From: Candidatus Dadabacteria bacterium
GTDB lineage: Bacteria > Desulfobacterota_D > UBA1144 > Nemesobacterales > Nemesobacteraceae
Direction: 5' to 3'
Length of the DNA stretch: 64,000 nt
Assembly: GCA_022822065.1 (NCBI GenBank)
Contig: JAJECI010000001.1
Coordinates: 23,141-87,140, forward strand
The number at the start of each line of letters is the position of its first letter. The first letter of the stretch is position 1. The notes below the pieces were generated by a model. The model made no database searches and was not told the origin of the DNA. It saw only the letters and a program-made list of their open reading frames with translations. Position numbers and translations under genes: made by a program. Shown here piece after piece: positions 1,221 through 19,333 of this stretch.

Positions 1221-1242
1221 CCGATTCGTCCTTTGACATACA

Positions 1243-1317
1243 TGGTGAGCACGGCAGGATTTGAACCTGCGACCCCTTGCACGTCAAGCAAGTGCTCTGC
1301 CACTGAGCTACGTGCTC
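1243..1317 (-). tRNA. tRNA-Val, anticodon GAC, CCA encoded.
   Basis: The reverse complement GAGCACGTAGCTCAGTGGCAGAGCACTTGCTTGACGTGCAAGGGGTCGCAGGTTCAAATCCTGCCGTGCTCACCA folds as a cloverleaf. It has a 7-bp acceptor stem, a GCTC/GAGC D-stem, the anticodon loop TTGACGT and a GGTTCAAATCC T-arm. Confidence 0.9.
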
Positions 1318-1384
1318 AAAAACCTGATATTGTCTTTAATTATCGCATATTGTCAATAACTGCGGGGACGCTTGAGAATGACGG

Positions 1385-2341
1385 TGGTTTCGGGTAGTTT
1401 CACCATTCAGTCAAAGCATCCCGCAAAAACGGGAATCAAGTGGCGGAACCATTCGCAAAACTATACTCAACACGGATTTCATCGGATTCGCAGAATCCAC
1501 CAGAGGCAAGGTAAGAGACATCTACGATCTCGGCGAGCGTATCCTGATGATAGCCACCGACCGCATCTCGGCCTTTGACGTGATACTCCCAAACGGAATA
1601 CCCGCAAAGGGCGAGGTTCTAAACCGCATCTCCGAGTTCTGGTTCAGAAAAACAGAGCACATCATCCCGAACCACATGATCTCGACGGACCCCGGGGATT
1701 TTCCCGAGCCTTTCGGGAACCACGCCGAGACGCTTGCAGGCCGCTCCATGCTCGTGAAAAAGACCGATCCGCTTCCCGTGGAATGCGTCGTGAGAGGTTA
1801 TATAAGCGGCTCGGGGTGGGAGGAGTACAAAAAAACCGGCTCCGTCTGCGCGATACCCCTCGGTGAGGGCCTCGTTGAATCCCAGAAACTTCCGGAACCC
1901 GTCTTCACCCCGTCAACCAAGGCCGAGCAGGGAACCCATGACGAGAACATAACGTTCGGGGAGGTGCAGGATATGATAGGCGGGGAACTCGCGGGCAAGG
2001 TGCGGGACGCAAGCATCGAGATCTACGCTGCCGCCGCCGGAATAGCCGAGGAGAAGGGAGTGATAATAGCCGATACGAAATTCGAGTTCGGCATAGACCG
2101 CGACACTGAAGAACTCATCCTGATAGACGAAGCCCTGACGCCGGATTCTTCAAGGTTCTGGCCCCTGGCGGACTACGCCCCCGGCGGACCACAGACGAGT
2201 TTTGACAAGCAGTTCGTAAGGGACTACCTCAAGCAGACAGGCTGGGACCGGAATCCCCCGGCTCCCGAGCTTCCGCCCGACATAGTGAGGAAAACAAGCG
2301 AAAAGTATCTTGAGATGCTCAGGCTTTTCTGCGGAGGATAG
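1385..2341 (+). CDS. purC: Phosphoribosylaminoimidazole-succinocarboxamide (SAICAR) synthase, long form.
   Basis: Motifs are …[26 protein letters not shown]… and …IADTKFEFG…. The listed ATG at 1547 is internal, because the conserved GKVRDIY block lies upstream. The frame opens after a stop at 1379-1381. The only canonical upstream start is GTG at 1385, so the true start is uncertain. The stop is TAG at 2339-2341. Confidence 0.8.
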
Positions 2342-2345
2342 AACT

Positions 2346-2519
2346 TTGGCAAAGACGAGTTCTCCATGCAACGGCATATGCATAATGGACGAGGATACGG
2401 GGCTCTGCGTCGGATGTCTCCGCACAAGCGACGAGATAGCGAACTGGGAAGAATACTCAGACGAGCAGAGGACTGAAGTCATGCGTGAAATAACGCGGCG
2501 GGAAGCGGAGCAGGACTAG
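2346..2519 (+). CDS. Small Cys-rich DUF1289-family protein.
   Basis: Motif CNGICIMDEDTGLCVGCLRTSDEIANW (CxGxC…CxGCxRTxxEIxxW). The likely start is TTG at 2346, 7 nt after a GGAGGA (2333-2338). The listed ATG at 2310 would overlap the purC 3' end. Confidence 0.6.
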   Translation: MAKTSSPCNGICIMDEDTGLCVGCLRTSDEIANWEEYSDEQRTEVMREITRREAEQD

Positions 2520-3331
2520 TGAAGACCGTGAGCATCCTTGGCTGCGGCTGGCTCGGAGAGCCGCTCGCATACTCCCTCAAGGAAGCGGGTTTTTCGGTAA
2601 GAGGGTCGGTCAGGAAACCCGAGGGGCTCACCGCCCTTTCGCAAAAGGGAATAGAATCCTACCTTATAGACATAGCCCCCGAGGTAAACGGAGAGGAGAC
2701 AGACGAATTTTTCTCCTCGGACGTTCTTTTCATAAACTTTCCCCCCGAGCGAAGAGACGACATCGAGACTTACCACGAAAAACAGATCGAAAACCTCATC
2801 GGGGCGATACCGAACCCCCAGGGGAAAATGGTCATTTTTGCCAGTTCGACCTCCGTTTACCCGAATACAAACGGGGTCGTGCGCGAAGAGGACTCCCTCT
2901 ATCCTGACAAACCGTCGGGAAAGGCTCTTCTGCGCGTGGAGAGGCTTCTCACGGACCACCCTGAAATCGATACGACCGTCATACGTTTTTCGGGGCTCAT
3001 AGGCTACGACAGGGCGCCCATAAAATCGATCAGAAGAAAAAAACTGGTGCTTAACCCCAACTGCCCCCTTAACCTCATACACCGCGATGACTGCATAGGA
3101 ATCATTCGAAGCATAATAGATCTTGACGTAAGAAATACCATCCTCAACGCCACCTGCGACGAACATCCCACAAGAAGGGAATATTACTCGCGCGAAGCTC
3201 AAAAATACGGAATCCCGCCGCCGCTTTTCGAAACGGAAAATCCGCCGGAGTACAAGATAGTCTCAAACGAAAAGTTGAAGAGAACACTCGGGTACAGATT
3301 GATTTATCCGGACCCGCTCGGCATACCCTAG
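2519..3331 (+). CDS. NAD(P)-binding Rossmann-fold oxidoreductase, SDR/epimerase-like (YeeZ-like).
   Basis: N-terminal ILGCGWLG glycine-rich dinucleotide-binding motif, GTG start, 270 aa. Confidence 0.5.
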   Translation: MKTVSILGCGWLGEPLAYSLKEAGFSVRGSVRKPEGLTALSQKGIESYLIDIAPEVNGEETDEFFSSDVLFINFPPERRDDIETYHEKQIENLIGAIPNPQGKMVIFASSTSVYPNTNGVVREEDSLYPDKPSGKALLRVERLLTDHPEIDTTVIRFSGLIGYDRAPIKSIRRKKLVLNPNCPLNLIHRDDCIGIIRSIIDLDVRNTILNATCDEHPTRREYYSREAQKYGIPPPLFETENPPEYKIVSNEKLKRTLGYRLIYPDPLGIP

Positions 3332-3526
3332 AGAATGGACAGATTCCCCAGACAATGGGACATGATCTGAAAAGGGATAATTTCCTTTATTTTTAATAAG
3401 GCGCACATCTGGTATTCTTCATTCTTGGCAAACTACTTGTAGTTGCCTGTGCTTAATCTATTCTCAAAGTTGCGCTTCAGGGTCTAATTCACAGTTTTCG
3501 ATCGAGTTGCTTCTTTGGTTCACAAA

Positions 3527-3555
3527 TTGATAAGCTGAAACATACTTCTTAACAT
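3527..3555 (+). promoter_or_regulatory. Putative sigma70 promoter for the DUF262/DUF1524 gene.
   Basis: TTGATA (3527-3532), 17-nt spacer, TAACAT (3550-3555). An AGGAG RBS at 3571-3575 precedes the TTG start at 3583. Confidence 0.3.
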
Positions 3556-3582
3556 GTACGGATTTTTGTAAGGAGAAAATCC

Positions 3583-5691
3583 TTGAAAGCTTCAGAAGCT
3601 CAACTTTTTGGGGTTCTCAAGAAATCACCTCAATTCATCATTCCCATCTACCAGCGTACTTACTCGTGGAGAGAAAAAGAATGTCGTCAGCTATGGCATG
3701 ACATTGTCCGAGCTGGAAATAACGATGCGATACCGTTGCACTTTTTTGGTTCCATTGTCTACATCCAAGAAGGTCTTTCATTAATCACCCATCAAGAACC
3801 GCTACTCGTTATTGACGGCCAACAACGCCTAGCAACAGTTATGATACTCTTGGCCGCTTTGGCAGAAGCACTCGGCGACGAAAGCGAACCTATCGAGGGC
3901 TTTTCTGCCAGCAAACTACGCAATTACTATCTCTTAAACCCTAGCGAATCAGGTGAACGTCGCTATAAACTTCTCCTCTCCCAAACTGACAAAGAGACCC
4001 TTATTTCAATTGTTGATAAACGACAACTCCCTATGTCATACTCGCTTCGGCTCAAAAAGAACTTCGATCTATTCAAAGACCTTATTGCTGAACAACAAGG
4101 AGATTTAACCCCAATTTATAAAGGGGTGGCAAAATTAATTATCGTCGAAGTCGCCCTCGATCGTGATCAAGATAATCCACAGCTTATCTTCGAAAGTCTG
4201 AATTCGACAGGTCGCGAACTTAGCCAAGCAGATCTGGTCAGAAATTTTATTCTCATGGAACTGAAACCAGAAGCTCAAACCCGCATCTATAAAGAATTTT
4301 GGCAACCTATGGAGATAATGTTCGGACAAGAAGCGTATGAAACGGACTTCAACGAATTTATGCGATATTACTTGACTGTGAAAACAGGGGAAATTCCACG
4401 TCGCAATGATGTGTATGAAGTTTTTAAGGAATACGCCAGATCACAAAAGATTGCCGAGGAGAATATTGAGACTCTGGTCAACGATATTTACAGCTTTGCT
4501 AAGTTTTACTGTGCAATGGCTCTTGACCAAGAAACAGACTCTGACCTCAAACTCGCTTTTCATGACCTTCGAGAGTTGAAGATGGGCGTAGTCTACCCAT
4601 TCCTGCTGGAATTATACAAAGACTATATTGACGGACTGCTGACCAAAGAAAACTTTCTTAGGGCTATCAGGTTGATTGAGTCTTATCTTTTCCGGCGTTC
4701 TATATGCACGATCCCGACCAACTCGCTTAACAAAACTTTTGCCACGTTTACCAAGTCCTTGCAAAAAAACCGATACATCGAAAGTATTAAAGCACATTTC
4801 TTATTGTTGCAATCCTATCGCCGTTTTCCAGATGACCAAGAATTCAAACGTGATTTGCAGACTCGCAATCTGTATAACTTCAGAAATCGTAGCTACTGGC
4901 TACGTCGATTGGAAAACCACGATAAAAAAGAACGCGTTCCAGTCGACGAGTACACAATCGAGCATATTATGCCCCAGAACAAAGCCCTGCCCAATGGTTG
5001 GAAGGAAGCTCTCGGCAACGAATGGGAACGTGTTCATCAGACCTATTTGCATACATTGGGAAACTTGACGCTTACTGGGTACAACTCCGAGTATAGTGAT
5101 CACTCGTTCAAAGAGAAATGCAATATGGAAGGTGGTTTCAAGCACAGCCCTCTTAAGGTCAACTCAGGACTTAGTGAATGGAAAACGTGGGACGAAAATT
5201 CAATCAAATCCCGTGCTGAAATTTTAGCGGAGCAAATGGTGAAAATCTGGCAGGCACCCGTATTATCTGCCGAAATTCTTGAGAATTATAAGCCAAAAGA
5301 AAACAGAGCAATTGAGTACTCAATAGATAACTATTCGAATCTGTCGGACCCCCGAATTCGTGAACTCTTTGAAGCGTTTCGCAAAGAGGTTTTAGGGTTT
5401 GATCCATGCGTCTCAGAGGAACGCAGAAAAAACTATATCGCATACAAAGCGGAAACCAATTTCGTATATCTCAATCCGCAAGTAAATCAGCTTCGACTAA
5501 ACCTTATTATCAGCTTTTCAGACATAAATGACCCACGCGGTATTTGCGAGAATGTTCTTCCCAGCCAAGGACATAACCAAGCAAGCCGTGAAGTTGTTGT
5601 CAGGTTTAGAGAAATCGATAAATTACCTTACGTAGTCGGGTTAGCGCGTCAAGCCTTTGAAACACAGCTCGGAAATGGAGACAACACATAG
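3583..5691 (+). CDS. DUF262 (ParB-like NTPase/nuclease) plus DUF1524 (HNH-like) fusion protein. GmrSD/SspE/BrxU-family putative modification-dependent (type IV) restriction endonuclease.
   Basis: The N-terminus has IPIYQRTYSW and DGQQR motifs (DUF262). The C-terminus has …YTIEHIMPQN…LGNLTLTGYN… (DUF1524 HNH-like). It is 702 aa with a TTG start and an RBS, and sits in a lower-GC region. Confidence 0.75.
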   Translation: MKASEAQLFGVLKKSPQFIIPIYQRTYSWREKECRQLWHDIVRAGNNDAIPLHFFGSIVYIQEGLSLITHQEPLLVIDGQQRLATVMILLAALAEALGDESEPIEGFSASKLRNYYLLNPSESGERRYKLLLSQTDKETLISIVDKRQLPMSYSLRLKKNFDLFKDLIAEQQGDLTPIYKGVAKLIIVEVALDRDQDNPQLIFESLNSTGRELSQADLVRNFILMELKPEAQTRIYKEFWQPMEIMFGQEAYETDFNEFMRYYLTVKTGEIPRRNDVYEVFKEYARSQKIAEENIETLVNDIYSFAKFYCAMALDQETDSDLKLAFHDLRELKMGVVYPFLLELYKDYIDGLLTKENFLRAIRLIESYLFRRSICTIPTNSLNKTFATFTKSLQKNRYIESIKAHFLLLQSYRRFPDDQEFKRDLQTRNLYNFRNRSYWLRRLENHDKKERVPVDEYTIEHIMPQNKALPNGWKEALGNEWERVHQTYLHTLGNLTLTGYNSEYSDHSFKEKCNMEGGFKHSPLKVNSGLSEWKTWDENSIKSRAEILAEQMVKIWQAPVLSAEILENYKPKENRAIEYSIDNYSNLSDPRIRELFEAFRKEVLGFDPCVSEERRKNYIAYKAETNFVYLNPQVNQLRLNLIISFSDINDPRGICENVLPSQGHNQASREVVVRFREIDKLPYVVGLARQAFETQLGNGDNT

Positions 5692-6068
5692 AATAAGTTA
5701 GCTTCTGATCTTACGAGACAGAACCACCCCGTTCGTGTTTCTACATGCAAAGTCATTCAGGGCACTCTTGATTCCAATGCATGAATAATACCTCTCAAGC
5801 CACCTTTTAACCTTTAAAATTGTATTAAATATTGAAAACTTTCTTGGAATCCTAAAACATTTTTATACTATTTTCGCTGTCAAGATGCTTTGCAAATAGT
5901 CTTTAAGCACTTGTGCAATCCCGACCAACCATAGGCCGATTGGATGTCACCAGCGTTTCACCGCTGGACAGCAACAAAGTTCCACAGAAGAGGGAATTCC
6001 CGAATTTTCTTGAATTTTCCCGTTTTTTCTCACAAAATAATCAGCAACAACCAAGACGTGAGTCCGCT

Positions 6069-6248
6069 ATGTCCGATGAAATTATGACTCTCAAAGAAAT
6101 AGCTGAATACCTGAAACTGAAGGAGAAAACCGCTTACCGGCATGCTGCCGAAGGTATTTTGCCAGGGTTCAAAGTTGGTGGCGCATGGAGATTCAGAAAG
6201 GCGGACATCGATGCGTGGATCGAAAAAAACAAGAATTCCGCACAATGA
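6069..6248 (+). CDS. Small helix-turn-helix DNA-binding protein (excisionase/AlpA/MerR-like HTH_17 type), putative regulator coupled to the methyltransferase.
   Basis: MSDEIMTLKEIAEYLKLKEKTAYRHAAEGILPGFKVGGAWRFRKADIDAWIEKNK (60 aa). Its stop (6246-6248) overlaps the MTase ATG (6245) as ATGA. The listed longer ORF 5913..6248 has no support upstream of this Met. Confidence 0.55.
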   Translation: MSDEIMTLKEIAEYLKLKEKTAYRHAAEGILPGFKVGGAWRFRKADIDAWIEKNKNSAQ

Positions 6249-7783
6249 CGAAAAAGAGTAAAACCTATCCCGTAATTGATCTGTTTGCTGGGCCCGGAGG
6301 ATTGGGCGAAGGATTTGCATCTCTCAAAAATAAAAACGGCAAAGCTGCATTTGAGTCAGTTGCATCAATAGAAACGGACAAAACTGCTCATGACACATTG
6401 ACGCTCCGACATTTCTTCCGCTGCTTCCGGGAAGACCAGGTCCCCGAGGCCTATTACAGATATGTGTCTGGAGAAATTTCAAAGTCAGATTTAATCGAAC
6501 TTTATCCAAAGCAATGGAATATCGCCTGTGAAAGCTCATTGAATATAACTCTTGGAAGCGAAAACCACGAACTTGTAAAAAAGGCGATAAAAAAGCGTCT
6601 GGCTAGATCAAAAAACTGGGTTCTTGTTGGTGGGCCACCGTGTCAGGCTTATTCTCTTGTCGGACGTTCCCGCATGATGAGAATAGATGGATTTGAAAAA
6701 GATGAGAGACATTTTCTCTACCGCGAATACCTGAAGATAATTGTTGATCACAGGCCTCCGGTTTTCGTCATGGAGAACGTAAAGGGGCTTCTTTCTTCCA
6801 AGACCGATGGGGAATTTGTCGTTCAGAAAATTGTCGATGATCTTTCCAGTCCTATAAAAGCAGTTACGTCAAGACAGAATGGACTACGATACAACCTTTA
6901 CCCGCTTAGCTCTGCCCGGCTTTTCAAGCACGAAGTTGATCCTTGGGAATTCGTTGTCAGGGCTGAGGCTTATGGCATACCCCAAGCACGGCACCGGATG
7001 TTCGTTGTTGGCATCAGGGAAGATATTGATATCAGCCCATCCCCCCTTTCTCCTTCTGACCCTCCGAATGTAAAAAAGGTTATCGGCAACCTGCCTAGGA
7101 TCAGAAGTGGTGTATCTAAAGGCAGCGACTCTCCAGAAAGGTGGCGTTCTATTGTCTCAGAAGCTGCAGAAAGCACATGGCTGAGACAGTTAAGATCTTC
7201 TGATTATGAACGGCTAGTCTCAAAACTTGAGGCTGTAATTTCAAAAATTTCTCATGCTCCGCAACGAACAAGTGCAAAAACGTATAAATCGACACCTGTT
7301 CTGAATGGGTGGTTTTACGATGAACGACTGAAATCTCTTCTCTCACATGAAGCGCGCTCTCACATGCCCAGTGATCTTCATAGGTATCTTTTTGTATCAA
7401 CTTATGCTTCTGTTTTCAGATATTCACCAAAGCTTACAGATTTCCCAGATGCTCTTTTACCGAAGCATCGAAGTGCGTCTCGAGAAAGAAATCCTGTAGC
7501 TTTTTCTGATCGTTTCAGAGTTCAGCTTTGTGAGCGGGTAGCTACAACTATAACTTCACACATTTCAAAGGATGGTCATTATTTCATCCATTATGATCCG
7601 GTTCAATGTCGCAGCCTAACTGTTCGTGAAGCGGCAAGGTTGCAGACCTTTCCGGATAATTATCATTTTGAGGGACCCAGAACATCGCAATACCATCAAA
7701 TTGGTAACGCTGTTCCTCCCTATCTCGCAAGGCAGATTGCAGAAGTAATAAAAGAAGTCATGGACACACTGCCCGAAGACTGA
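6245..7783 (+). CDS. dcm: DNA (cytosine-5)-methyltransferase.
   Basis: Motifs are I DLFAGPGGLGEGF, IV GGPPCQAYS, VI VFVMENVKGL and X QIGNAVPPYLA. The start is taken at MTKKSKTYPVIDLF (6245). The listed start at 6185 overlaps the HTH gene. Confidence 0.9.
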   Translation: MTKKSKTYPVIDLFAGPGGLGEGFASLKNKNGKAAFESVASIETDKTAHDTLTLRHFFRCFREDQVPEAYYRYVSGEISKSDLIELYPKQWNIACESSLNITLGSENHELVKKAIKKRLARSKNWVLVGGPPCQAYSLVGRSRMMRIDGFEKDERHFLYREYLKIIVDHRPPVFVMENVKGLLSSKTDGEFVVQKIVDDLSSPIKAVTSRQNGLRYNLYPLSSARLFKHEVDPWEFVVRAEAYGIPQARHRMFVVGIREDIDISPSPLSPSDPPNVKKVIGNLPRIRSGVSKGSDSPERWRSIVSEAAESTWLRQLRSSDYERLVSKLEAVISKISHAPQRTSAKTYKSTPVLNGWFYDERLKSLLSHEARSHMPSDLHRYLFVSTYASVFRYSPKLTDFPDALLPKHRSASRERNPVAFSDRFRVQLCERVATTITSHISKDGHYFIHYDPVQCRSLTVREAARLQTFPDNYHFEGPRTSQYHQIGNAVPPYLARQIAEVIKEVMDTLPED

Positions 7784-8196
7784 TGACTGATATTTTGAGC
7801 AAAGAAAAGAGAAGCTGGAACATGTCCCGAATCCGTTCGGGAAACACAAAACCGGAAATTGCGGTTCGCCGTATTCTTCATTTCCTCGGATACAGGTTCA
7901 GACTGCACAGAAAGGACCTGCCCGGAAAGCCGGACATTGTTTTGCCGAAATACAAAACCGTTATCTTTGTTCATGGCTGTTTCTGGCACAGACATGAAAA
8001 CTGCCGGTACTCCTACAACCCGAAATCACGCACAAAATTCTGGCAGAATAAATTCGCAGCCAATATTGAGCGGGATAAACAGAATGCAGCAAAACTGGAA
8101 ATACTTGGTTGGCGACGGCTTGTGATCTGGGAATGTGAGACAAAGAACCCGGAGAATATTCGCTCCATTATTGAACGGTTCTTTGAAAAAATTTGA
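7783..8196 (+). CDS. vsr: Very short patch repair endonuclease.
   Basis: RSGNTKPE…GKPDIVLPKY…VIFVHGCFWHRHENC signature. The ATG overlaps the dcm stop (TGATG at 7781-7785). Confidence 0.9.
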   Translation: MTDILSKEKRSWNMSRIRSGNTKPEIAVRRILHFLGYRFRLHRKDLPGKPDIVLPKYKTVIFVHGCFWHRHENCRYSYNPKSRTKFWQNKFAANIERDKQNAAKLEILGWRRLVIWECETKNPENIRSIIERFFEKI

Positions 8197-8342
8197 GATT
8201 TAAAGGCCTTCTGCTCACATATATTAGCCCTCTTACTTTCATATATTCACTAATTTTCGACATATATACTGCATATATATCTGCATAGACGTATCAAATC
8301 TACCCTTAAAATGATACATTTGGCATTTATATATGAAATATA

Positions 8343-8371
8343 TTGACAATATTACATCGTTGGTGTATACT
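8343..8371 (+). promoter_or_regulatory. Near-consensus sigma70 promoter driving the four-gene candidate operon.
   Basis: TTGACA (8343-8348), 17-nt spacer, TATACT (8366-8371). An AGGAGA RBS at 8383-8388 precedes the ATG at 8395. It lies in an AT-rich region with CATATAT-type repeats. Confidence 0.5.
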
Positions 8372-8394
8372 TACCCTTAAACAGGAGACTGGTA

Positions 8395-8625
8395 ATGCGC
8401 GATAAACGTAAAAAATTTGTTGAGCTGGCAGAAGCCAGAGTGAACCGTGCAGTTAAAGATATCCGGCTTATCGGCAATCTCTCCAACCGAGGTTCTTATG
8501 AATATTCAGAGCAAGATGCGCGCGAGATTTTCAAGGCACTCCAAAAGGAACTTGACGCTGCAAAAAGCAGGTTCTCTGAAAATGGTGAGGGTGGAGTCGA
8601 TTCATTTCGACTGAGCAGTCGCTGA
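8395..8625 (+). CDS. 76-aa hypothetical protein, charged and probably helical or coiled-coil. It is the first gene of the candidate operon.
   Basis: Good RBS and promoter. No recognisable motif. A 6-bp-stem hairpin (8595-8612) lies in the 3' end. Confidence 0.5.
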   Translation: MRDKRKKFVELAEARVNRAVKDIRLIGNLSNRGSYEYSEQDAREIFKALQKELDAAKSRFSENGEGGVDSFRLSSR

Positions 8626-8672
8626 TATTTGAAACGCAGACAGTAAAGAACATTTGTTTATAAGAGGTACAA

Positions 8673-10598
8673 TTGATGAGTGAAATACGACTTGAATTTT
8701 TGCCCAATGTAGGAGGGGAAGCCGAGGGCCTCAGTGATGGGGGCATAGAAACTTTTCGCGAAAATCCATTCGCCGCTGTTGCCCGTGAAACAGGCCAGAA
8801 CAGCCGCGACGCCCGCGACGATACTAATAACCCAGTAAAACTTACTTTCGACATCGTGACGCTAGAGTCAGAGAAATTTCCGTCTATCGAGCAGTACAGA
8901 GAAGCCGCCGAACTTTGTCTGGATAAATCATCCGCGGCAAATAAAGAGAAGGAAACGGGCTTCTTCGGGAATGCTTGCAAAATTCTTAATGCCGAAAATA
9001 TCAGGATTCTCAGAATTTCAGATTTCAATACAAAAGGCGTTCGTGGACCATGTAAAGAGGGTACCCCCTTCCATACGCTTGCTAAAACTGACGGCGTCAG
9101 TGAAAAGGAGGACAGAGACTCTGGTGGTTCTTTCGGCATAGGCAAGAACGCAACCTTTGCCCTTTCAGATATCCAGACTGTCTTCATTTCAACTCTCTAC
9201 ACAGATGAGAACGGAAACGGTCAGGTTCTCTGTATGGGAAAAACATTATTTATTTCTCATAGAGGAAACGATGGGGAGGAGAAAAGGGGGAAAGGATACT
9301 GGGGCAAGTCAGAAAGATATATGCCGTTAGACAGCCCCAGTGAAATTCCGGAATGGCTTCTGCGTGATAAACAGGGAACCTCAATTTTCTCCATCTGCAT
9401 GCGTGACAACCGGACAGACTGGCGCTACGAAATGGCAGCAGCAATACTGATCAATTTTTTCTGCTCTATAGAGCGCCAAGAAATGGAATTTGAAATTGAT
9501 GAGGGGTCGATCAAAATTAATCGTGGAACACTTCAGGCACTTTTCAGCAACAGCCGGGTCAACAAAGCTGTAGATGAGCTTAATGCACGTGTCGCGTTTG
9601 AAACAGCGAGAACCCTCCATGCCTGTCTGATTGATGAGCAGACTTTCATAGAAAATCTGGAGATCGAAGACTTGGGAACGGTCCGCATGCATATGCTGAT
9701 GCGTGACGGCCTTGGATATACAATCGGTATCATCCGTAACGGCATGTATATCACCGACAATCTCTCCCATTTTAACGAACCCTTCAAACGCTTTCCGCTC
9801 CACCGTGATTTTGCTGTAATTATTGAGCCCGTCGGTAAAAGAGAAGGTGAGTGGTTCAAACGACTTGAGAATCCCAGTCATAACAGTCTGTCTGCAGAGG
9901 GAATAACCGACCCTGAACTCAGAGCCAAGGGGCGTAAAGCTTTTGAGAAACTTGCAAAAAAAATACGCAGCAGAATCCAAGCGTTGGCCAAGTCACAGCC
10001 GTCGAATACACTGGAGCTCGATGAACTGAATGATTTCTTCGCCTCGGATGAAACAAGAAGCGAAGATGATGCCGGAATGGAAACAGATCCCCAATCAAAA
10101 AAGCCCACGCCTGTCAGGCCTGTAAAACCCAAGCCACCAACTCCTGATTCCCGCAAACAAACTTCACCAGATGACCCTCCTATCCCCGGACCCGAACCCG
10201 GACCTGAACCAGTTGATGAACCCTCTCCAGATCCGGAGCCACGACCGGAGCCCGGACCAGTACCACATCCAAGGAAGATCATGAAACCAGTTGAATTGAT
10301 ATCAGAACGTGCCCTGATACCGGACAAGTCAAATGCGAGCAGAAGGCAGTTCAGATTCACTTCGCCCATTTCTGCAGAGATCGTGCTCTATGCCGATGCA
10401 ACCGGCTTGACAAACTCTGAACGTCTAAACCCAGTAAGCACATCGGAAGGCCGAATCGAGAACAGTGCTATTGAAGTGTCTTGCACAGCGAATCAGCGTA
10501 ACAGCATTGATGTGGTCTTTGATGCCCCTTATACCGGCCCTGTCGAAATCTTAGCTTACCAAGTTGAAGAAGAACAACAGGCAGGAGAGTCGGCATGA
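8673..10598 (+). CDS. GHKL-superfamily (MORC/MutL/Hsp90-like, HATPase_c_3-type) ATPase with a Pro/Glu/Gly-rich linker and a C-terminal domain of unknown function.
   Basis: Bergerat-fold motifs are the N-box AVARETGQNSRDA (ExxxNSxDA, nt ~8787-8816), a G1-like ISDFNTKGVRG and the G2 box GGSFGIGKNA (nt ~9124-9150). A PEPGPEP-rich linker is at ~10080-10280. The start is TTG at 8673 or ATG at 8676, with an AAGAGG RBS. The stop overlaps the next gene's ATG (ATGA at 10595-10598). Confidence 0.7.
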   Translation: MMSEIRLEFLPNVGGEAEGLSDGGIETFRENPFAAVARETGQNSRDARDDTNNPVKLTFDIVTLESEKFPSIEQYREAAELCLDKSSAANKEKETGFFGNACKILNAENIRILRISDFNTKGVRGPCKEGTPFHTLAKTDGVSEKEDRDSGGSFGIGKNATFALSDIQTVFISTLYTDENGNGQVLCMGKTLFISHRGNDGEEKRGKGYWGKSERYMPLDSPSEIPEWLLRDKQGTSIFSICMRDNRTDWRYEMAAAILINFFCSIERQEMEFEIDEGSIKINRGTLQALFSNSRVNKAVDELNARVAFETARTLHACLIDEQTFIENLEIEDLGTVRMHMLMRDGLGYTIGIIRNGMYITDNLSHFNEPFKRFPLHRDFAVIIEPVGKREGEWFKRLENPSHNSLSAEGITDPELRAKGRKAFEKLAKKIRSRIQALAKSQPSNTLELDELNDFFASDETRSEDDAGMETDPQSKKPTPVRPVKPKPPTPDSRKQTSPDDPPIPGPEPGPEPVDEPSPDPEPRPEPGPVPHPRKIMKPVELISERALIPDKSNASRRQFRFTSPISAEIVLYADATGLTNSERLNPVSTSEGRIENSAIEVSCTANQRNSIDVVFDAPYTGPVEILAYQVEEEQQAGESA

Positions 10599-11428
10599 AG
10601 CTGAATGAGAGAATGCGTTATCCGCACCCTGTTCTAAGCAAATTTTCCTCCGATTATACGACTGGGGAGTTTTCTGCGGCTTTCTCTCATCAGGTTACTG
10701 ATGACGACCAGTTGAAAATTGCTTCAGACTTGTCCACTGACTGTGATGAATTGAGAGTTCTTATCGAAGATCAGAAGGCTTCCGCAGGATATTTTGTTGT
10801 ATGCAGACCCACATATTTCAACCACCTTCAGCTCGTTCCACTCGGAGAGTCAGAAAAATTCTTTGAATTGAGTCAACTTTATGGAGCGGTTTCTCTGCGT
10901 CCCGTAATATGGACCCTTGAAGATGTCGAAAATTATTCGAGCCCTTTAATTGACGCTGAATTCGGCAAGGAAATTGTCATAACAAAAGGTGTAGTTATAG
11001 CTATGGGGCGAGAGTTCCAGTTTTCTATTGATCAACAGAAATTCAAACCATTTGAAACCATATTCGACCTAGCTCAGAGCAAAGACATCAAACCGGGAAT
11101 GATCGAAGTTGATCCTGAAGGGGACAAAATTACAATTCTAGCAGAACCGGAAACCTACAATTCTATCGCCAACATGCGAAATATCCTTCAGGGACGCACA
11201 ATTCTTATTAACGCTGTCTACATGCCAGCCGTCATGGACATTGTCTCAAGACTTCAGACAGACGGCCCAAGCTTGGAGAGCAAACGCTGGTACAGAGTTT
11301 TCAAGGCAAAATGCGACGATATTGGCATCAATCCGTCAGATAAGACCTTCTTGCCTCTTGAGGTTGCACAGGAACTTCTGAGAGGCCCTCTAAAGGCAAC
11401 CATACAAGTCATGGAGTCCATGAGATGA
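10595..11428 (+). CDS. 277-aa hypothetical protein, third gene of the candidate operon.
   Basis: Translationally coupled on both sides by ATGA overlaps. I recognise no conserved motifs. Confidence 0.5.
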   Translation: MKLNERMRYPHPVLSKFSSDYTTGEFSAAFSHQVTDDDQLKIASDLSTDCDELRVLIEDQKASAGYFVVCRPTYFNHLQLVPLGESEKFFELSQLYGAVSLRPVIWTLEDVENYSSPLIDAEFGKEIVITKGVVIAMGREFQFSIDQQKFKPFETIFDLAQSKDIKPGMIEVDPEGDKITILAEPETYNSIANMRNILQGRTILINAVYMPAVMDIVSRLQTDGPSLESKRWYRVFKAKCDDIGINPSDKTFLPLEVAQELLRGPLKATIQVMESMR

Positions 11429-12180
11429 ATGAACCTCTTAAGTATCTCTCGGACAGGGCGTTGTCAGAACTTAGAAACTCTATCTCGGAAAATATTGAGC
11501 GGTATACAGGCAATGGTTTTGAGGAATATGCTTTTCTGCCGTCATGGGATATCTCTCTGAAAATCAACTTCGACAAGAATCTCCTTGCTACGCTTGATAC
11601 GAAACGGCAACGCGCAATTGTCGAGATTGATCTTGCAAATTCAAAAATTGTCGGCAAGGCACTGGAAAACCTGACGCCATCACTGGCGAATGAAGAGCGC
11701 ATCTGGGTTCGTCTTTCTCATCTGGAAGCATTTGAATACAGTAGAATACGCTGGCTTACAGGAAAAGAAGGTGAGTATCTTGTTTCCTCCATAGAAAGAC
11801 ATTTCTTTGCGCCCACTCAAACAATCATCCGTGATGACCATGCACTGTCGCGACTATGGTGGAACTATCATATTGCACGAACCTGCATGCCAGACAATAT
11901 AGATAAGGCTTTAGAGCTTATCCTGAAAACCGCTGACATCAGAAGTAACTTTGTCGAGCGAATCTGGATGAGCAGCCGCAGAAACATCGCAGGTGCTGTT
12001 CTGCGGGCAATGGATACACAGGAATGGATTACCGATGCCGAACAGAACTTTCGCGAGTTCATGAAAGTACTCAACCGTCAAGGCGGCGGAATCGTTTTTG
12101 AAGCCCTGAGCGAGTCAGAAGCCGATGCATTTGTTCAGGAATGTACAGACCGAGCAATGAACATAATGGGAGCAGTTTAA
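11425..12180 (+). CDS. 251-aa hypothetical protein, last gene of the candidate operon.
   Basis: ATGA overlap with the upstream gene. No recognisable motifs. An AT-rich non-coding region follows. Confidence 0.5.
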   Translation: MNEPLKYLSDRALSELRNSISENIERYTGNGFEEYAFLPSWDISLKINFDKNLLATLDTKRQRAIVEIDLANSKIVGKALENLTPSLANEERIWVRLSHLEAFEYSRIRWLTGKEGEYLVSSIERHFFAPTQTIIRDDHALSRLWWNYHIARTCMPDNIDKALELILKTADIRSNFVERIWMSSRRNIAGAVLRAMDTQEWITDAEQNFREFMKVLNRQGGGIVFEALSESEADAFVQECTDRAMNIMGAV

Positions 12181-12430
12181 TTCTAAATATTATTCCAATT
12201 CAGGGTTGTGCCCTCAGCGGACTCCAAGAAAAAATAGACGTTTCACAAGGCTCGGGTTCGTCTGCGCCCGCCGTCGATTTGTCATTCCGTTTGCATACCC
12301 CCGTTCGCCACGAGGCTTGTTTGCCCTTGCTTTTATGTTCTTAAAAGTTATTTTTTCGTTTTTTCTTCATTCATTATGGATAATAATTCACCTGAAAATA
12401 GTAAAAATATCAGAGAATTAGAACAAAAAA

Positions 12431-12459
12431 TTGATATTTCTTCAATATACCGTTATTAT
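12431..12459 (+). promoter_or_regulatory. Putative sigma70 promoter for the Panacea-domain pair.
   Basis: TTGATA (12431-12436), 17-nt spacer, TATTAT (12454-12459). Confidence 0.35.
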
Positions 12460-12488
12460 CATGACCGAAAGTCAAATGGGAGAGTCCG

Positions 12489-12962
12489 GTGGCACGGATT
12501 AAAAGTACCGTTCAGGATGTCGCAAAATATATCCTGAAGAGGCTTGCTTCTAAGGGTGAAGATAACATCACTTCTTGGAAGCTTCAAAAATTAGTTTATT
12601 ACTGTCAAGCGTGGTCGTTAGTCTGGGAGGAGGCCCCTCTTTTCTTGGAAGAAATACAAGCTTGGGCCGATGGGCCGGTCTGTCCTGACCTTTACCATAA
12701 ACATAAGCGTAAATTCAGGCTTGACCCTGATGATATTAAGGGAAACACAAGGAAGTTGTCTCCCAGTCAGCGAGAAACGATTAATGCTGTTTTGGACTAC
12801 TACGGAGATAAAACAGGACGCTACTTAAGCGACCTTACACATCTTGAAAGACCATGGATTGAGGCTCGTGCTGGTTTACAACCTGGGGAGAGAGGTAGTG
12901 TTGTAATTGAGTATAACGACATGGTTGATTACTATGGCGGCTTAATTAATAGTGCCGAGTAG
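12489..12962 (+). CDS. Panacea-domain (DUF4065, SocA/GepA-like) protein, putative antitoxin.
   Basis: …SWKLQKLVYYCQAWSLVWEEAPLFLEEIQAWADGPVCPDLY… matches the DUF4065 core. GTG start, 157 aa. Confidence 0.65.
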   Translation: MARIKSTVQDVAKYILKRLASKGEDNITSWKLQKLVYYCQAWSLVWEEAPLFLEEIQAWADGPVCPDLYHKHKRKFRLDPDDIKGNTRKLSPSQRETINAVLDYYGDKTGRYLSDLTHLERPWIEARAGLQPGERGSVVIEYNDMVDYYGGLINSAE

Positions 12963-13407
12963 TAAAAAGAAGAAACTAACTAGAAAACCTAAGCAAGACC
13001 AAAACCCAGCAACTCTTTCAAAGACCCCTAAATCGATTTCCACAAGTGTTAGCAATGAACACTTCCGCTGGGATGTAAGGAACGCTGACTTTGATGGCGA
13101 GTACGGATGGAAGAAGGTTGAGATAAAAACTTTGTTCCGAGAAATCATTCCTAAACTCAGACAGTTTGAAAGCATGAAGTGGGGAGAAATTGAGGGAGAG
13201 GATAGTCATTTTGTTGATGTGGATAAGTGTAGTACAGAAGCTCAGAAACGCTTGAAAAGAATTAAACTAGATGACTTGGAACAGCTGTTCTCTTTGCGAA
13301 TAGGGGGCAAAAAGCGGATATTTGGCTGGCGGGAAAAATCAGTTTTTCATGTGCTTTGGTGGGATCCAGACCATAAAGTTTATCCGTCAAAAATGAAGTA
13401 CACTTAA
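12952..13407 (+). CDS. 151-aa basic hypothetical protein, putative toxin partner of the Panacea protein.
   Basis: Its GTG start overlaps the upstream gene by 11 nt. It has a Lys-rich N-terminus and a conserved-looking FHVLWWDPDHKVYP block. Confidence 0.4.
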   Translation: MPSSKKKKLTRKPKQDQNPATLSKTPKSISTSVSNEHFRWDVRNADFDGEYGWKKVEIKTLFREIIPKLRQFESMKWGEIEGEDSHFVDVDKCSTEAQKRLKRIKLDDLEQLFSLRIGGKKRIFGWREKSVFHVLWWDPDHKVYPSKMKYT

Positions 13408-13636
13408 TTCCTAACTGACATTGTATACAATCTCCCAAAGTCCCCTTTTCAAAAATCCCCTGAATTTTTGGCTAGCTATGTATGTTATTCCCTCTGAAAG
13501 CTGTTGAGAAAAACCTTAAAAAAGGGGAAAATAGACGGAAGTGGAAAGCGAAATTGCACAATATCGTTTTCGGGTGGGAGCAAAAACCATAAAATTTCCA
13601 GACACGGAGCGTAATTTCTCCCGCGCGGCAGCCTAG

Positions 13637-14632
13637 GTGCCTATGGACGGAATCAGGGAACTTGAACTTGAGAACATAGAAGCGGTAAAGGTCCTCTACG
13701 GGGAACTTAACTCGAATCTCAAGGAAATAGAAAACGAATTCGACATAAGCATCCACACCCGGGGCAACAAAATCACTCTCAAGGGGAATGAGGAAAGGAC
13801 CGCGGAAGCGGGCATGCTCATGGGGCAGATGTACTCGCTTATAGAGAAGGGCTATGTTCTCCAGCCTTCCGACATAAAAATAGCGAAGAGGCTTCTCAGC
13901 CAGAAAGACGCCTCCCTTGAAGAGATATTTCTCGACACGATCTGCATATCCGTACGGAAAAAAATAATAAGCCCCAAGACCATAAACCAGAAACTCTACA
14001 TCGACGCGATAAGAAGAAACGACATGGTGTTCGGCATAGGACCCGCGGGAACGGGAAAAACCTATCTGGCAATGGCGATGGCCGTCTCGGCGTTTACGAA
14101 TAAGAAGGTGAACAGAATAGTGCTCGCGCGGCCCGCCGTGGAGGCTGGAGAGAAACTCGGGTTCCTCCCCGGCGATCTTCAGGAGAAGGTGAATCCCTAC
14201 CTGAGACCTCTTTTTGACGCTCTTTACGACATGATGGAATTTGAGAAGGCAAACAGGCTGATTGAAAAGAACATGATTGAAATCGTTCCGATAGCCTACA
14301 TGAGAGGAAGAACACTGAATGACGCGTTCATAATTCTCGATGAAGCCCAGAACACAACGGCGATACAGATGAAGATGTTCCTCACCCGACTCGGGTTCGG
14401 CTCAAAAACGGTCATAACGGGAGACATAACCCAGATAGACCTGGCCAGGGACCAGAGCTCGGGACTTATCGAAGCCATGAACATCCTCTCAGGAATAAAG
14501 GGGATAGAGTTCGTCAACTTCTCAAAGACCGACGTCATAAGGCACCCGCTGGTCATGAGAATAATAGACGCGTACGAAAAAATTAAGGATAATGTCAGCG
14601 GACGTACCCCCGCAACAGGAGAAAACGAATGA
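13637..14632 (+). CDS. phoH: PhoH-family ATPase (phosphate-starvation-inducible protein).
   Basis: Walker A GIGPAGTGKTYLAMA and a typical PhoH C-terminal region. The start is GTG at 13637 or ATG at 13643. Confidence 0.85.
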   Translation: MPMDGIRELELENIEAVKVLYGELNSNLKEIENEFDISIHTRGNKITLKGNEERTAEAGMLMGQMYSLIEKGYVLQPSDIKIAKRLLSQKDASLEEIFLDTICISVRKKIISPKTINQKLYIDAIRRNDMVFGIGPAGTGKTYLAMAMAVSAFTNKKVNRIVLARPAVEAGEKLGFLPGDLQEKVNPYLRPLFDALYDMMEFEKANRLIEKNMIEIVPIAYMRGRTLNDAFIILDEAQNTTAIQMKMFLTRLGFGSKTVITGDITQIDLARDQSSGLIEAMNILSGIKGIEFVNFSKTDVIRHPLVMRIIDAYEKIKDNVSGRTPATGENE

Positions 14633-15018
14633 AAATACTCGCCGTCTTTTTTCTCGCAGCCATGCTGCTTGCTCCCTCGTGCAGGAGATGGGAGAACCCG
14701 GCGACTTCCATGGTGTCGGCCGACAAATCCGTAGCGGTTCTTATTCTTAACCCCTCTGTGTACACGATGCAGGAAGTGCGCGTCAGGGGAAAGGTGTGGG
14801 AAATTAAAACAACGGAAGAACCGGCAGAATCAACGATCTTCAAACTGGCCGACAGCGACGGAAACTACATAACGGTCGTCTGGGAAAAGGAACTCTTCTT
14901 CTCAGAAGGAAACATAGTCGAAGCGGCAGGCCTTTTTGACAGCAACTTCATCTCCTCTGAGAACAGGTTTGACCCCAAGCTTACGGCGCAGACAATCGAG
15001 GTTCTGAAAGGGGACTGA
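14629..15018 (+). CDS. Lipoprotein of unknown function.
   Basis: Signal peptide plus lipobox (LLAPSC). ATGA overlap with the phoH stop. Confidence 0.5.
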   Translation: MKILAVFFLAAMLLAPSCRRWENPATSMVSADKSVAVLILNPSVYTMQEVRVRGKVWEIKTTEEPAESTIFKLADSDGNYITVVWEKELFFSEGNIVEAAGLFDSNFISSENRFDPKLTAQTIEVLKGD

Positions 15019-17574
<2,556 letters not shown>

Positions 17575-17582
<8 letters not shown>

Positions 17583-19173
17583 CTGAAAAACTGACTTGGG
17601 TTACCGAAATAATATTCTCTATGGTGGAAATTTCCCGGATAACTTCCTCGCTAACCTCGACATCGACGTTCGTAAACACTATAGCTTCCCCGCCGACGGA
17701 TTCTCTTCCAAGATGCATCCGTCCGATGTTTACGCCGTTTTTCCCGAGAACGGAACACATTGAGCCTATGAAGCCCGGGCGGTCATAGTTATGGCTAACG
17801 AGCAGGAATCCCTCGGGAACGACGTCTATCTCAACCCCGTTCACCTTGACTATCCTTTCGTGGTTCCCGCCGAAAACACTCCCCGAAATCTCGTTGGCCC
17901 CCTCGCGGGTCGTGACAGCCACGGTAATGAGGCTTGTGTACTGGCTCATGGCCGCGGATTTCGACTCCACCACTTTTATCTTCCTCTCCTCGGCTATCGA
18001 CGGAGCGTTCACGTAGGTCACCGAGATGTCCATTATATGCGAGAAAAAGCCTTTCAGCACGGCAACCGTGAGGTGCTCGGAGTCCATTTCGGCCGCCTCG
18101 CCCTCGTAAGTTACCTCTATCGTGCGAACCGCACCCTTGCAGAGCTGCCCGTGAAGACTGCCTATCTTCTCGCAGATTGACATATACGGCCTCATGACGG
18201 CAAGCTGCTCCGTCGTAAGCGACGGCATGTTAACCGCGTTTCTGACAACCCCTTTCTGCGCGAAATCTATAAGCTGCTGCGCCATGGTGGTCCCGACCTT
18301 TATCTGCGCCTCCTCCGTGGAAGCACCGAGATGCGGGGTAAGCACTATGTTCTCATCAATGGAAAGAACCGGGTTTTCGGGGTCTATCGGTTCCGAGGTG
18401 TAAACGTCAAACGCCGCTCCTCCCACCTTGCCTTCGCGGAGAGCCTCGGCCATATCCGCCTCGTTCACTATGCCCCCCCTGGCGCAGTTAATCACTATGA
18501 CCCCTTCTTTCATCTTCGCAAAAGACTCGGAGTTTACAAGATCCCTTGTCTCGTCCGTAAGGGGCGTGTGTACCGTTATAACGTCCGAGCGGTGGAAAAG
18601 CTCGTCCAGGGAGACAAGCTCGATGCTGAGCTTCTTCGCGGCTTCCTTGCTGAGGTAAGGATCGTACGCGATCGCCTTCATCTTAAGACCCATGGCGCGC
18701 TCCGCCACCAGCTTTCCTATGTTTCCGAGGCCCACGAGTCCTATCGTCTTTCCGTAGACCTCGACTCCCTTGTACTTGTTTCTCTCCCACTTGCCCGATT
18801 TTATCGAGGAGTGAGCCTGGGGGATTCTCCTGGCGAGGGAAAGCAGCAGCGTGATTGTGTGCTCCGCAGTGGTTATCGAGTTTGACTCGGGGGTGTTCAT
18901 AACGGCCACCCCGTTTCTGGTCGCGGCGTCAAGATCTATGTTGTCTATTCCTATGCCGGCGCGTCCTATGATCCGAAGCCTGCCGCCCGAAGCCTCTATG
19001 ACTTCCTTGGTGACCTTCGTGGCGCTTCTTACCACGAGGCCTTCGTAGTCCTTTATTATATCCGCAAGCTCGTCGGGAGAGATGCCTTTTCTCTCGTCAA
19101 CCTCGACTCCCTCGGCCGCCTTGAGAAGTTCAAGGCCCTGCTTAGCAAGTCCGTCAGTTATAAGTATTTTCAA
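17575..19173 (-). CDS. serA: D-3-phosphoglycerate dehydrogenase with C-terminal ACT domain.
   Basis: NAD-binding [13 protein letters not shown] and a 2-hydroxyacid dehydrogenase fold. The likely start is TTG at 19173, 5 nt after a GGAGGA, giving MKILITDGL…. The listed ATG at 19206 would add 11 residues. Confidence 0.85.
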
Positions 19174-19333
19174 GAGATTCCTCCGGGATGGCGGGATAAA
19201 AACCACTAAGATAATAGTTAAACGAAAGACAATGTCAATCAGTCAGGCCGTGTTTTGAGAGCGGGCGCGCGGAACCCGCGGGGAAGCGTAAAATTGTTAA
19301 AAACCGCGATTTGGGTTAACCTAACCTGCTGCA

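Follow-up and report, generated by a model that had tools for sequence, protein, structure and literature searches.

What do the four co-directional genes at positions 8343-12180 of a 64,000-nt stretch of Candidatus Dadabacteria DNA (contig JAJECI010000001.1; the whole stretch is called the window below) do for their host, and how far does the unit to which they belong extend? An original prediction, made from the letters alone, had seen here an undescribed defence operon consisting of a strong promoter, a 76-aa protein, a GHKL/MORC-like ATPase and two proteins without assignable motifs. In this study, we propose that the region may represent one copy of a mobile defence module with two halves, one self-marking and one effector, and that the three large proteins, A, B and C, would be the attacking half of a restriction-modification (RM)-like system that is methylation-marked and ATP-dependent; we give this restriction-like reading a probability of roughly one half. 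The effector operon in the window, in which the 76-aa protein is called s76, comprises:

8343-8371, + strand: sigma-70-type promoter of the four-gene operon, TTGACA-17-TATACT, 11 of 12 positions matching
8395-8625, + strand: open reading frame (ORF) of the small protein s76, 76 aa
8673-10598, + strand: ORF of protein A, 641 aa from TTG, PDC-M33A
10595-11428, + strand: ORF of protein B, 277 aa, PDC-M33B
11425-12180, + strand: ORF of protein C, 251 aa, PDC-M33C, Pfam DUF6339

All four ORFs lie on the + strand where the original prediction had placed them, and it was right also about the near-consensus promoter and about the translational coupling of the last three genes, for which the ATGA stop/start overlaps between A and B (10595-10598) and between B and C (11425-11428) were read directly from the sequence. 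The promoter is the top-scoring promoter-like site across 7500-13000; such sites as a class are not enriched in this region scan (6 found, 8.4 expected from shuffles), and the 8343-8371 site is made credible by its position, with an AGGAG ribosome-binding site 8 nt before the first gene's ATG at 8395. Since homologues of A start at MSEIRL, its start is most likely ATG 8676 (640 aa), which lies 7 nt after AAGAGG, and not TTG 8673.

When all four proteins were scanned against Pfam, NCBIfam and PADLOC, the three large ones matched, in adjacent co-directional genes and in the order A-B-C, the PADLOC hidden Markov models (HMMs) PDC-M33A (E 7.9e-97), PDC-M33B (E 2.7e-43) and PDC-M33C (E 2.5e-29). 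The triad is thus a catalogued one and cannot be called undescribed, and a match of this kind was what the original prediction itself had named as demoting its finding. Protein C is in addition a member of Pfam DUF6339 (PF19866; E 9.1e-42, 143.2 bits against a gathering cut-off of 23.2), so that one of the two partners said to lack assignable motifs does have an assignable family. Weak hits aside, the scans of the four proteins returned only PDC-M33 and DUF6339: the PADLOC-DB v2 models of Hma, MADS, BREX, DISARM, Gabija, Septu and others gave no match at E up to 1 except PDC-M33 and two weak chance-level hits, and the DUF4263 PD-(D/E)xK domain of Shedu and paraMORC3 is absent, the SduA model of PADLOC yielding only a 12-bit match (E 0.022) over 49 residues. 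PDC-M33 is one of 145 phage defence candidates, explicitly left untested, which came from genes found inside BREX, DISARM or type I RM loci; it is listed in supplementary file 8 as cassette CAS_00129 with three families, a count of 98 and the order A>>B>>C (Payne, Hughes, Fineran, Jackson 2024, bioRxiv 10.1101/2024.01.29.577857). Literature searches for PDC-M33, for DUF6339 and for GHKL proteins with Vsr or methylcytosine defence found no characterisation. The window therefore holds a member of PDC-M33, its three large proteins matching the HMMs in the same gene order, whereas the catalogue entry is confined to three genes, with no proposed function and without methylase, Vsr or 76-aa regulator. 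The listing of the triad was already known, as was the pairing of a GHKL ATPase with a cytosine methylase and Vsr, predicted in 2008 and taken up again for a different family in 2021. To this the present analysis adds the regulator and its operator, the role of the methylase as integral partner, the GHKL assignment, a B-C fusion, two proteins without a solved-structure match and the lack of co-variation with the methylase family.

How far the unit extends is best seen from its relatives, and it was drawn too small in the original prediction, which had left the adjacent dcm-vsr pair to the island neighbourhood. Relatives of A occur in 352 of 185,579 genomes (one genome per species), and 78 loci were fetched, giving 79 sources together with the window. 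When the ORFs of these sources were clustered, 77 sources had A, 70 had B and 69 had C; a Dcm-family methylase was present in 70, Vsr in 55 and the 76-aa protein in 37. The three large genes thus do co-occur elsewhere, essentially all loci keep them in one and the same order, and where one is missing the locus is decayed or cut by a contig end. This order is kept in 69 complete loci from Proteobacteria, Nitrospinota, Planctomycetota, Cyanobacteria and Bacillota. Of the 69, 66 are flanked by a cytosine-5 (C5) methylase (250 aa or longer), at no more than 2.5 kb in 57, and the larger gaps between methylase and A are occupied by Vsr, an EcoRII-family nuclease or the small gene of s76. Vsr is present in 52 complete loci and a dcm-vsr-EcoRII cassette in 31 (of six proteins scanned, five matched Pfam EcoRII-C at E between 1e-62 and 1e-67 and one at 1.4e-26), and in eight loci (L057, L067, L069, L070, L072-L075) the methylase abuts or overlaps the start of A, forming a dcm-A-B-C operon without Vsr. 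This near-obligate adjacency indicates that the dcm-vsr pair of the window belongs to the system. No further conserved partner was found: the other genes nearest to the loci, 109 in all, are a mix of integrases, relaxases and transposases with various defence and housekeeping genes, and no family accounts for more than five of them. In the window, the methylase genes are:

6069-6248, + strand: HTH_17 gene, encoding a small, excisionase/MerR-like DNA-binding protein (Pfam HTH_17, E 5.5e-18)
6185-7783, + strand: Dcm-type cytosine-5 DNA methyltransferase, long variant (Pfam DNA_methylase, E 7.6e-49), likely start ATG 6245
7783-8196, + strand: Vsr very-short-patch repair endonuclease (Pfam Vsr, E 9.1e-33)

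The HTH_17 stop and the likely Dcm start share the ATGA at 6245-6248, and the Vsr start overlaps the Dcm stop at 7783, which suggests that HTH-Dcm-Vsr (~6069-8196) is a second translationally coupled operon just upstream of the first. The HTH_17 ORF is listed as 5913-6248 from GTG, its first ATG being at 6069; its product is a possible accessory regulator of the methylase operon, and its homologue was found by tblastn once elsewhere, far from the system, and is not conserved in the other loci. No EcoRII-type nuclease lies within 10 kb in the window, which holds only Vsr and an unrelated GmrSD enzyme. In three loci (L027, L046, L065) A is split or truncated and Dcm is intact; loss of the effector with retention of the methylase is the usual decay route of RM systems. 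A 359-aa Dcm-B fusion (P0239) was considered as a Rosetta stone and rejected: in it a Dcm like that of the window, cut to its N-terminal half, runs straight into the final third of B, a deletion having removed Vsr, s76, A and most of B, and it is thus the remnant of a decayed locus. In the nearest reference genome, a Thermodesulfobacteriota metagenome-assembled genome (L001, 14755-18733), the system has dcm-vsr-EcoRII and another C5-methylase as neighbours; with the window it shares 99% identity in s76 but only 75% in A. No E. coli homologue was found at the DNA level.

By profile alignment and motifs, protein A is a GHKL (Bergerat-fold) ATPase. Of 67 homologues, at least 95% keep the N-box residues E39, N43 and D46, and the motifs E39/N43/D46, D117xNTxG122, G152SFGIGK158 and G235T236, each at least 90% conserved, follow one another in the GHKL order I-IV. 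A profile of 71 members of the A family (residues 1-460) was aligned by hhalign with E. coli HtpG, MutL and GyrB, with 40 shuffles as control, and scored 31.3 with HtpG (E 0.0025; shuffles 14.9, standard deviation (sd) 2.3, maximum 22.3) and 28.0 with MutL (E 0.0061; shuffles 14.9, sd 2.7, maximum 20.3). All four Bergerat motifs co-align with HtpG in a single alignment (ARETGQNSRDA/LRELISNASDA, RISDFNTKG/TISDNGVGM, GGSFGIGKNATFALSD/IGQFGVGFYSAFIVAD and QGTSIF/RGTEITL), and it is these motifs, together with scores above those of all shuffles, that argue for the assignment. The original prediction had named a GHKL ATPase, in the 641-aa protein, as the one recognisable domain of the gene set: the N-box holds, yet Pfam does not recognise a GHKL domain in A, HATPase_c_3 being matched by one of 20 N-terminal fragments (E 0.019) and GHKL models by none of ten full-length divergent A members. 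HMMER profile searches of PDB with A and with its N-terminal domain returned nothing, and NCBIfam gave only a weak sacsin ATP-binding-like match (E 0.007). The qualifier MORC-like is not established, the shared motifs being of superfamily level. In the middle region of A, a putative S5-type transducer, R355-x-G-M and E399-x-P-x-H403 are at least 95% conserved (67 sequences); against the motif GhXhhpXXRhl of the MORC S5-fold domain (Iyer, Abhiman, Aravind 2008, PMC2292703) A reads G-Y-T-I-G-I-I-R355-N-G-M, its Arg shifted by one place, and as a motif E399-x3-H403 fits the ExxxH that the same paper describes for paraMORC2 towards the C-terminal end of the S5 domain. The ATPase region is followed by a Pro-rich linker (~460-540) and then by a small conserved C-terminal domain. 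The linker (window 10050-10290) is of low complexity with PEPGPEP repeats, and its length and composition vary among homologues, some being Pro-rich and others Gly/Asp/Glu-rich.

Protein B was modelled (AlphaFold2, pLDDT 87.8) with a conserved but disordered N-terminal peptide, a tandem beta-sandwich (Ig/FnIII-like) and a helical C-terminal domain; fold searches gave only generic Ig/FnIII matches, the protein has few invariant residues, and by its model it looks like an adaptor or scaffold. Apart from a small sheet, protein C is all-alpha; no solved structure matches it, and it carries a conserved, enzyme-like cluster of His, Asp, Glu, Arg and Trp residues, including H99, H126, D138, D171 and E178, on which it is probably an effector enzyme. 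The cryptic nuclease, TIR or SIR2 folds that the original prediction had proposed to look for in the 277-aa and 251-aa proteins were not found: no TIR, SIR2 or known nuclease fold emerged in B or C from Pfam, PADLOC and PDB sequence and fold searches, and HMMER profiles of B, C and s76 against PDB gave nothing usable. One metagenomic representative of 528 aa (P0480) is a natural fusion of B (residues 10-269) and C (residues 284-522), and because of this fusion and the ATGA overlaps A, B and C most likely form one complex. The DUF6339 family as a whole comprises ~1,200 sequence clusters at 50% identity. In one of its subfamilies (P0478, P0487, P0500, P0507, P0520, P0526; 336-375 aa) there is a conserved C-terminal extension of ~100 aa; by eye it resembles HRDC, an identity that was not confirmed, Pfam giving no match and hhalign against the E. 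coli RecQ HRDC scoring within the range of the shuffles (14.1 against 10.3, sd 2.2).

The small protein s76 was matched by its HMM in 38 of the 79 sources; its gene invariably shares the strand of A and immediately precedes A, save in one locus where it precedes dcm-A-B-C. The protein is better conserved than A, B or C (E 1.6e-29 in Priestia, E 3e-27 in the phage copy) and helical, and it weakly resembles the ArgR/AhrC DNA-binding domain (E 3e-4 in NCBIfam, E 0.2 in PDB); Pfam helix-turn-helix (HTH), HTH_3 and C-protein models were not matched. A palindrome, AYATWT-N3-5-AWATRT (typically ACATTTYNNRAAATGT-like), lies within 147 nt upstream of s76 in 18 of the 38 loci, against a mean of 0.2 and a maximum of 3 in 500 base shuffles, and it occurs only 30 times in 1.5 Mb of loci. 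The window has two copies:

8262-8278: distal palindrome ATATATACTGCATATAT, matching AYATWT-N3-5-AWATRT, putative operator
8329-8343: proximal palindrome ATATATGAAATATAT, abutting the -35 hexamer, putative operator for s76

By analogy, s76 looks like a controller-type DNA-binding autoregulator of the effector operon and a facultative component of the system, which would bind the palindrome. In controller (C-protein) RM systems the regulator delays the toxic nuclease. The window resembles such type II systems in having a methylase that is expressed apart from the effector operon, and a small regulator gene that stands first in this operon, with a conserved palindromic operator at its own promoter; it differs from them in that s76 has no HTH_3/C-protein match and only weak ArgR-like similarity, its DNA binding being putative, and in that the effector would be a three-protein ATPase complex, not a single nuclease. 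Five loci without the main palindrome (L028, L033, L055, L060, L061) share, by eye, another inverted repeat, ATATTGCAACATA...TGTTGCTATAT, ~70 nt upstream of the small gene, which may be an alternative operator.

A-like proteins of ~27% identity are carried on Bacillota plasmids and in a phage, with B and C beside each confirmed by HMM. On a Priestia plasmid, s76-A-B-DUF6339 adjoins a MutH/Sau3AI-family nuclease and a C5-methylase. In a temperate phage of Clostridium innocuum (L082, PV036421.1, 1907-11177), an integrase and s76-A-B-C are followed by an HTH-fused C5-methylase and McrB/McrC homologues, and the DUF6339 protein there, 354 aa long, has an acidic C-terminal extension of ~100 aa. A Lactococcus conjugative plasmid holds A-B-C between an AlwI RM system with two N6-adenine methylases and AbiGI/GII, and in a Ligilactobacillus salivarius megaplasmid A-B-C is inserted after hsdS-hsdM in a type I RM locus. 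The link to C5-methylases is thus dominant but not universal, and carriage on mobile elements together with other defence genes is consistent throughout. Stand-alone DUF6339 genes on Listeria plasmids were rejected as copies of the system, being frameshifted remnants without A or B; they lie between IS6-type and UPF0236-type transposase genes in L087 (NC_014495.1, 6031-6590) and 63 other Listeria plasmids.

Taken as one module, the two operons might work as follows. The HTH-Dcm-Vsr operon would methylate host cytosines and so mark self; Vsr acts on the T:G mismatches that arise when 5-methylcytosine is deaminated, and here it would repair those caused by the methylation and limit its mutational cost. 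Binding of s76 to the palindrome abutting the -35 hexamer would gate the effector operon (8343-12180), in which A may act as an ATP-gated dimeric DNA clamp or matchmaker in the manner of MutL, Hsp90 and MORC-type enzymes, B as a beta-sandwich adaptor and C (DUF6339) as the catalytic effector on DNA without the methyl mark. The restriction-like reading draws on the near-obligate methylase linkage, the controller-like regulation, in which s76 and its operator reproduce the logic of controller RM systems, the carriage on plasmids, a prophage and genomic islands, the embedding in RM loci and the decay of A with Dcm kept.

What A-B-C would recognise is constrained by its choice of partners. Across 49 loci, the identity of A, B and C correlates weakly with that of the neighbouring methylase (Spearman 0.10-0.17). 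In a matched comparison of pairs at 55-70% identity in the N-terminal region of A, the identities for the same and for different methylase families were:

B identity: same family 53.8, different family 55.2
C identity: same family 56.6, different family 57.8
A C-terminal domain identity: same family 41.6, different family 42.0

The partner RM systems include EcoRII-type and Sau3AI-type ones, which have different targets, and together with the lack of co-variation this makes a classical sequence-matched nuclease unlikely. A-B-C has recombined with unrelated C5-methylase families without compensating change, and it therefore probably discriminates without a dedicated specificity domain. It would instead read 5-methylcytosine in any context, or rely on the methylase as its sequence-reading subunit, as happens in type I and III enzymes and in BREX. 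A speculative and rather improbable form of the former is that self and foreign DNA are told apart by cytosine-5 methylation as such, whatever its context, with A as a MutL/Hsp90/MORC-like ATP-gated clamp on DNA and the DUF6339 protein as a new effector or methyl-cytosine reader; this would explain the free swapping of the module between unrelated methylases and would make it a bacterial parallel to eukaryotes, in which GHKL ATPases are paired with DNA methylation.

Several points weigh against the restriction-like reading. Sequence searches of A, B and C (Pfam, PADLOC, PDB) and fold searches of B and C found no nuclease or other effector fold, and A-B-C has no element that varies together with the methylase family, which is awkward for a classical sequence-matched restriction enzyme; thus of the marks of a classical type II RM system, the locus has the adjacent methyltransferase (Dcm 6185-7783 here, 66 of 69 loci overall) and lacks both a recognisable restriction endonuclease fold in the partner genes and a specificity co-varying with the methylase. 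The GHKL assignment of A comes from pairwise profile scores of modest E (0.0025-0.09), the Pfam and PDB HMM searches having failed, and in the literature searched the PDC-M33 family is a candidate without any experiment. Two loci (L002, L010) hold an intact s76-A-B-C and no C5-methylase within 10 kb, the third exception among the 69 (L025) having too short a flank, and the two Lactobacillales plasmid copies adjoin N6-adenine or type I methylases, with no C5-methylase nearby. Finally, the 31 loci with EcoRII already carry a complete RM system, beside which a second restriction activity seems redundant.

Among the other explanations, the one that survives best, unlikely as it is, holds that A-B-C is an abortive-infection guardian, kept inactive by a working methylase or RM system and triggered, against phage or cell, once a phage counter-defence knocks out methylation or restriction. 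Such a role would be like that of PrrC, which guards the EcoprrI type I system. The module adjoins or sits in differing complete RM systems (EcoRII, Sau3AI-type, AlwI, type I), does not co-vary with the methylase family and has no recognisable DNA-specificity domain, all of which would suit a guardian, and tight control by a regulator fits a toxic effector. PrrC-type guards, however, bind one RM family, whereas the partner methylases here are 25-55% identical to one another; 38 of the 69 loci have no EcoRII-type restriction enzyme to guard, and a toxin-like fold was not found.

The alignment of A with MutL raises the doubtful alternative that the module is an accessory for repair or tolerance of the methylase. 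A would then be a portable matchmaker of the MutL kind and, by stimulating Vsr (or nucleases of the MutH/Sau3AI type) or by removing adducts between methylase and DNA, would make a cytosine methylase less mutagenic to its carrier. It is established that E. coli MutL stimulates Vsr and MutH (discussed in PMC2292703), Vsr accompanies 52 of the 69 loci, a MutH/Sau3AI-family nuclease adjoins the Priestia copy, and the link is to C5-methylases generically, not to one specificity. Yet 14 methylase-linked loci, including the eight dcm-A-B-C operons, are without Vsr, the two Lactobacillales plasmid copies are without a nearby C5-methylase, and a controller-type regulator, plasmid and prophage carriage and sporadic occurrence (352 of 185,579 genomes) are typical of defence and not of repair.

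It is improbable that the adjacency merely reflects clustering in defence islands and that A-B-C is an independent defence system with no functional tie to the methylase, as the definition of PDC-M33 in PADLOC without a methylase might suggest and as L002, L010 and the two Lactobacillales copies would allow: the 96% adjacency is far above the island background, where other flanking families reach at most five of 109 genes, and eight loci are overlapping or abutting dcm-A operons. EcoRII-type, Sau3AI/MutH-type and AlwI enzymes need two sites or transient dimerisation. A most improbable role as an enhancer of such site-pair-dependent enzymes, in which the ATPase would loop or compact DNA so that EcoRII, Sau3AI and AlwI cut sparse sites, accords with the nucleases found beside A-B-C (EcoRII-type in 31 loci, Sau3AI/MutH-type, AlwI) and with the looping role proposed for paraMORCs (Iyer et al. 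2008, PMC2292703), but over half of the loci, among them the window with only Vsr and GmrSD, lack such a nuclease within 10 kb.

One precedent for the restriction-like reading is the prediction of MORC/paraMORC proteins in RM operons (Iyer et al. 2008, PMC2292703). There, too, mobile islands join a GHKL ATPase with a cytosine methylase, Vsr and EcoRII-like nucleases, and A shares the invariant ExxxH (E399-x3-H403) of paraMORC2. The operon in the window differs in having neither a superfamily 2 (SF2) helicase nor a recognisable nuclease; the partners of A are instead two proteins without a solved-structure match, and the MORC-specific S5 motif is not evident. The HEF_HK/Response_reg_2 elements (Bellieny-Rabelo et al. 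2021, PMC8011034) likewise have a GHKL-containing gene pair beside a C5-methylase and Vsr, whereas the four window proteins do not match those Pfam families at E up to 1 and the partner proteins are others. With BREX, DISARM, Hma and MADS, multi-gene defences that are marked by methylation and have no classical restriction enzyme, the module would share a methylase as self mark, a multi-protein ATPase effector and mobility, a proposed likeness; no PADLOC HMM of these systems is matched, the ATPase here is GHKL and not P-loop, and the window system is much smaller.

If the restriction-like reading is true, the module would be a compact immunity of methylase, GHKL ATPase and two proteins without a solved-structure match, and DUF6339 would gain its first function, as a new enzyme or reader. 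The prediction of 2008 would then be made testable by a small system for bacterial GHKL/paraMORC ATPases in methylation-dependent DNA surveillance, an idea that bears on the origin of eukaryotic MORC proteins. The PADLOC model of PDC-M33 should include the methylase and the regulator, and the regulator with its putative operator, a pair conserved from Thermodesulfobacteriota to Bacillota, would represent a portable regulatory part.

The surroundings in the window agree with the original description of a lower-GC block holding a DUF262/DUF1524 nuclease, dcm-vsr and a Panacea pair, GmrSD, Dcm, Vsr and the Panacea antitoxin all being confirmed, and the defence-island context stands, with a co-transcribed, translationally coupled cassette amid defence genes. 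In the block (~3000-14000) GC is 0.41-0.47, against 0.51-0.57 outside it; neither an integrase nor a flanking tRNA was seen at it. The block lies between phoH (13637-14632) on the right and, on the left, an ORF of 270 aa (2519-3331) that follows closely on purC (1547-2341) and has an NADP/F420-oxidoreductase-like domain. Upstream of the methylase operon in the same island lies a GmrSD-type type IV restriction enzyme of 702 aa (3583-5691, + strand) with GmrSD_N, GmrSD_C (DUF262/DUF1524) and a C-terminal DUF5655. At 12431-13407 (+ strand), another good promoter-like site, TTGATA-17-TATTAT (12431-12459), precedes the gene of a 157-aa Panacea (SocA-like) antitoxin, which overlaps that of a 151-aa partner without a Pfam match. 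The sole tRNA in 1-20000 is tRNA-Val (1243-1317, - strand), which lies inside the listed ORF 672-1397, so that this ORF may be spurious.

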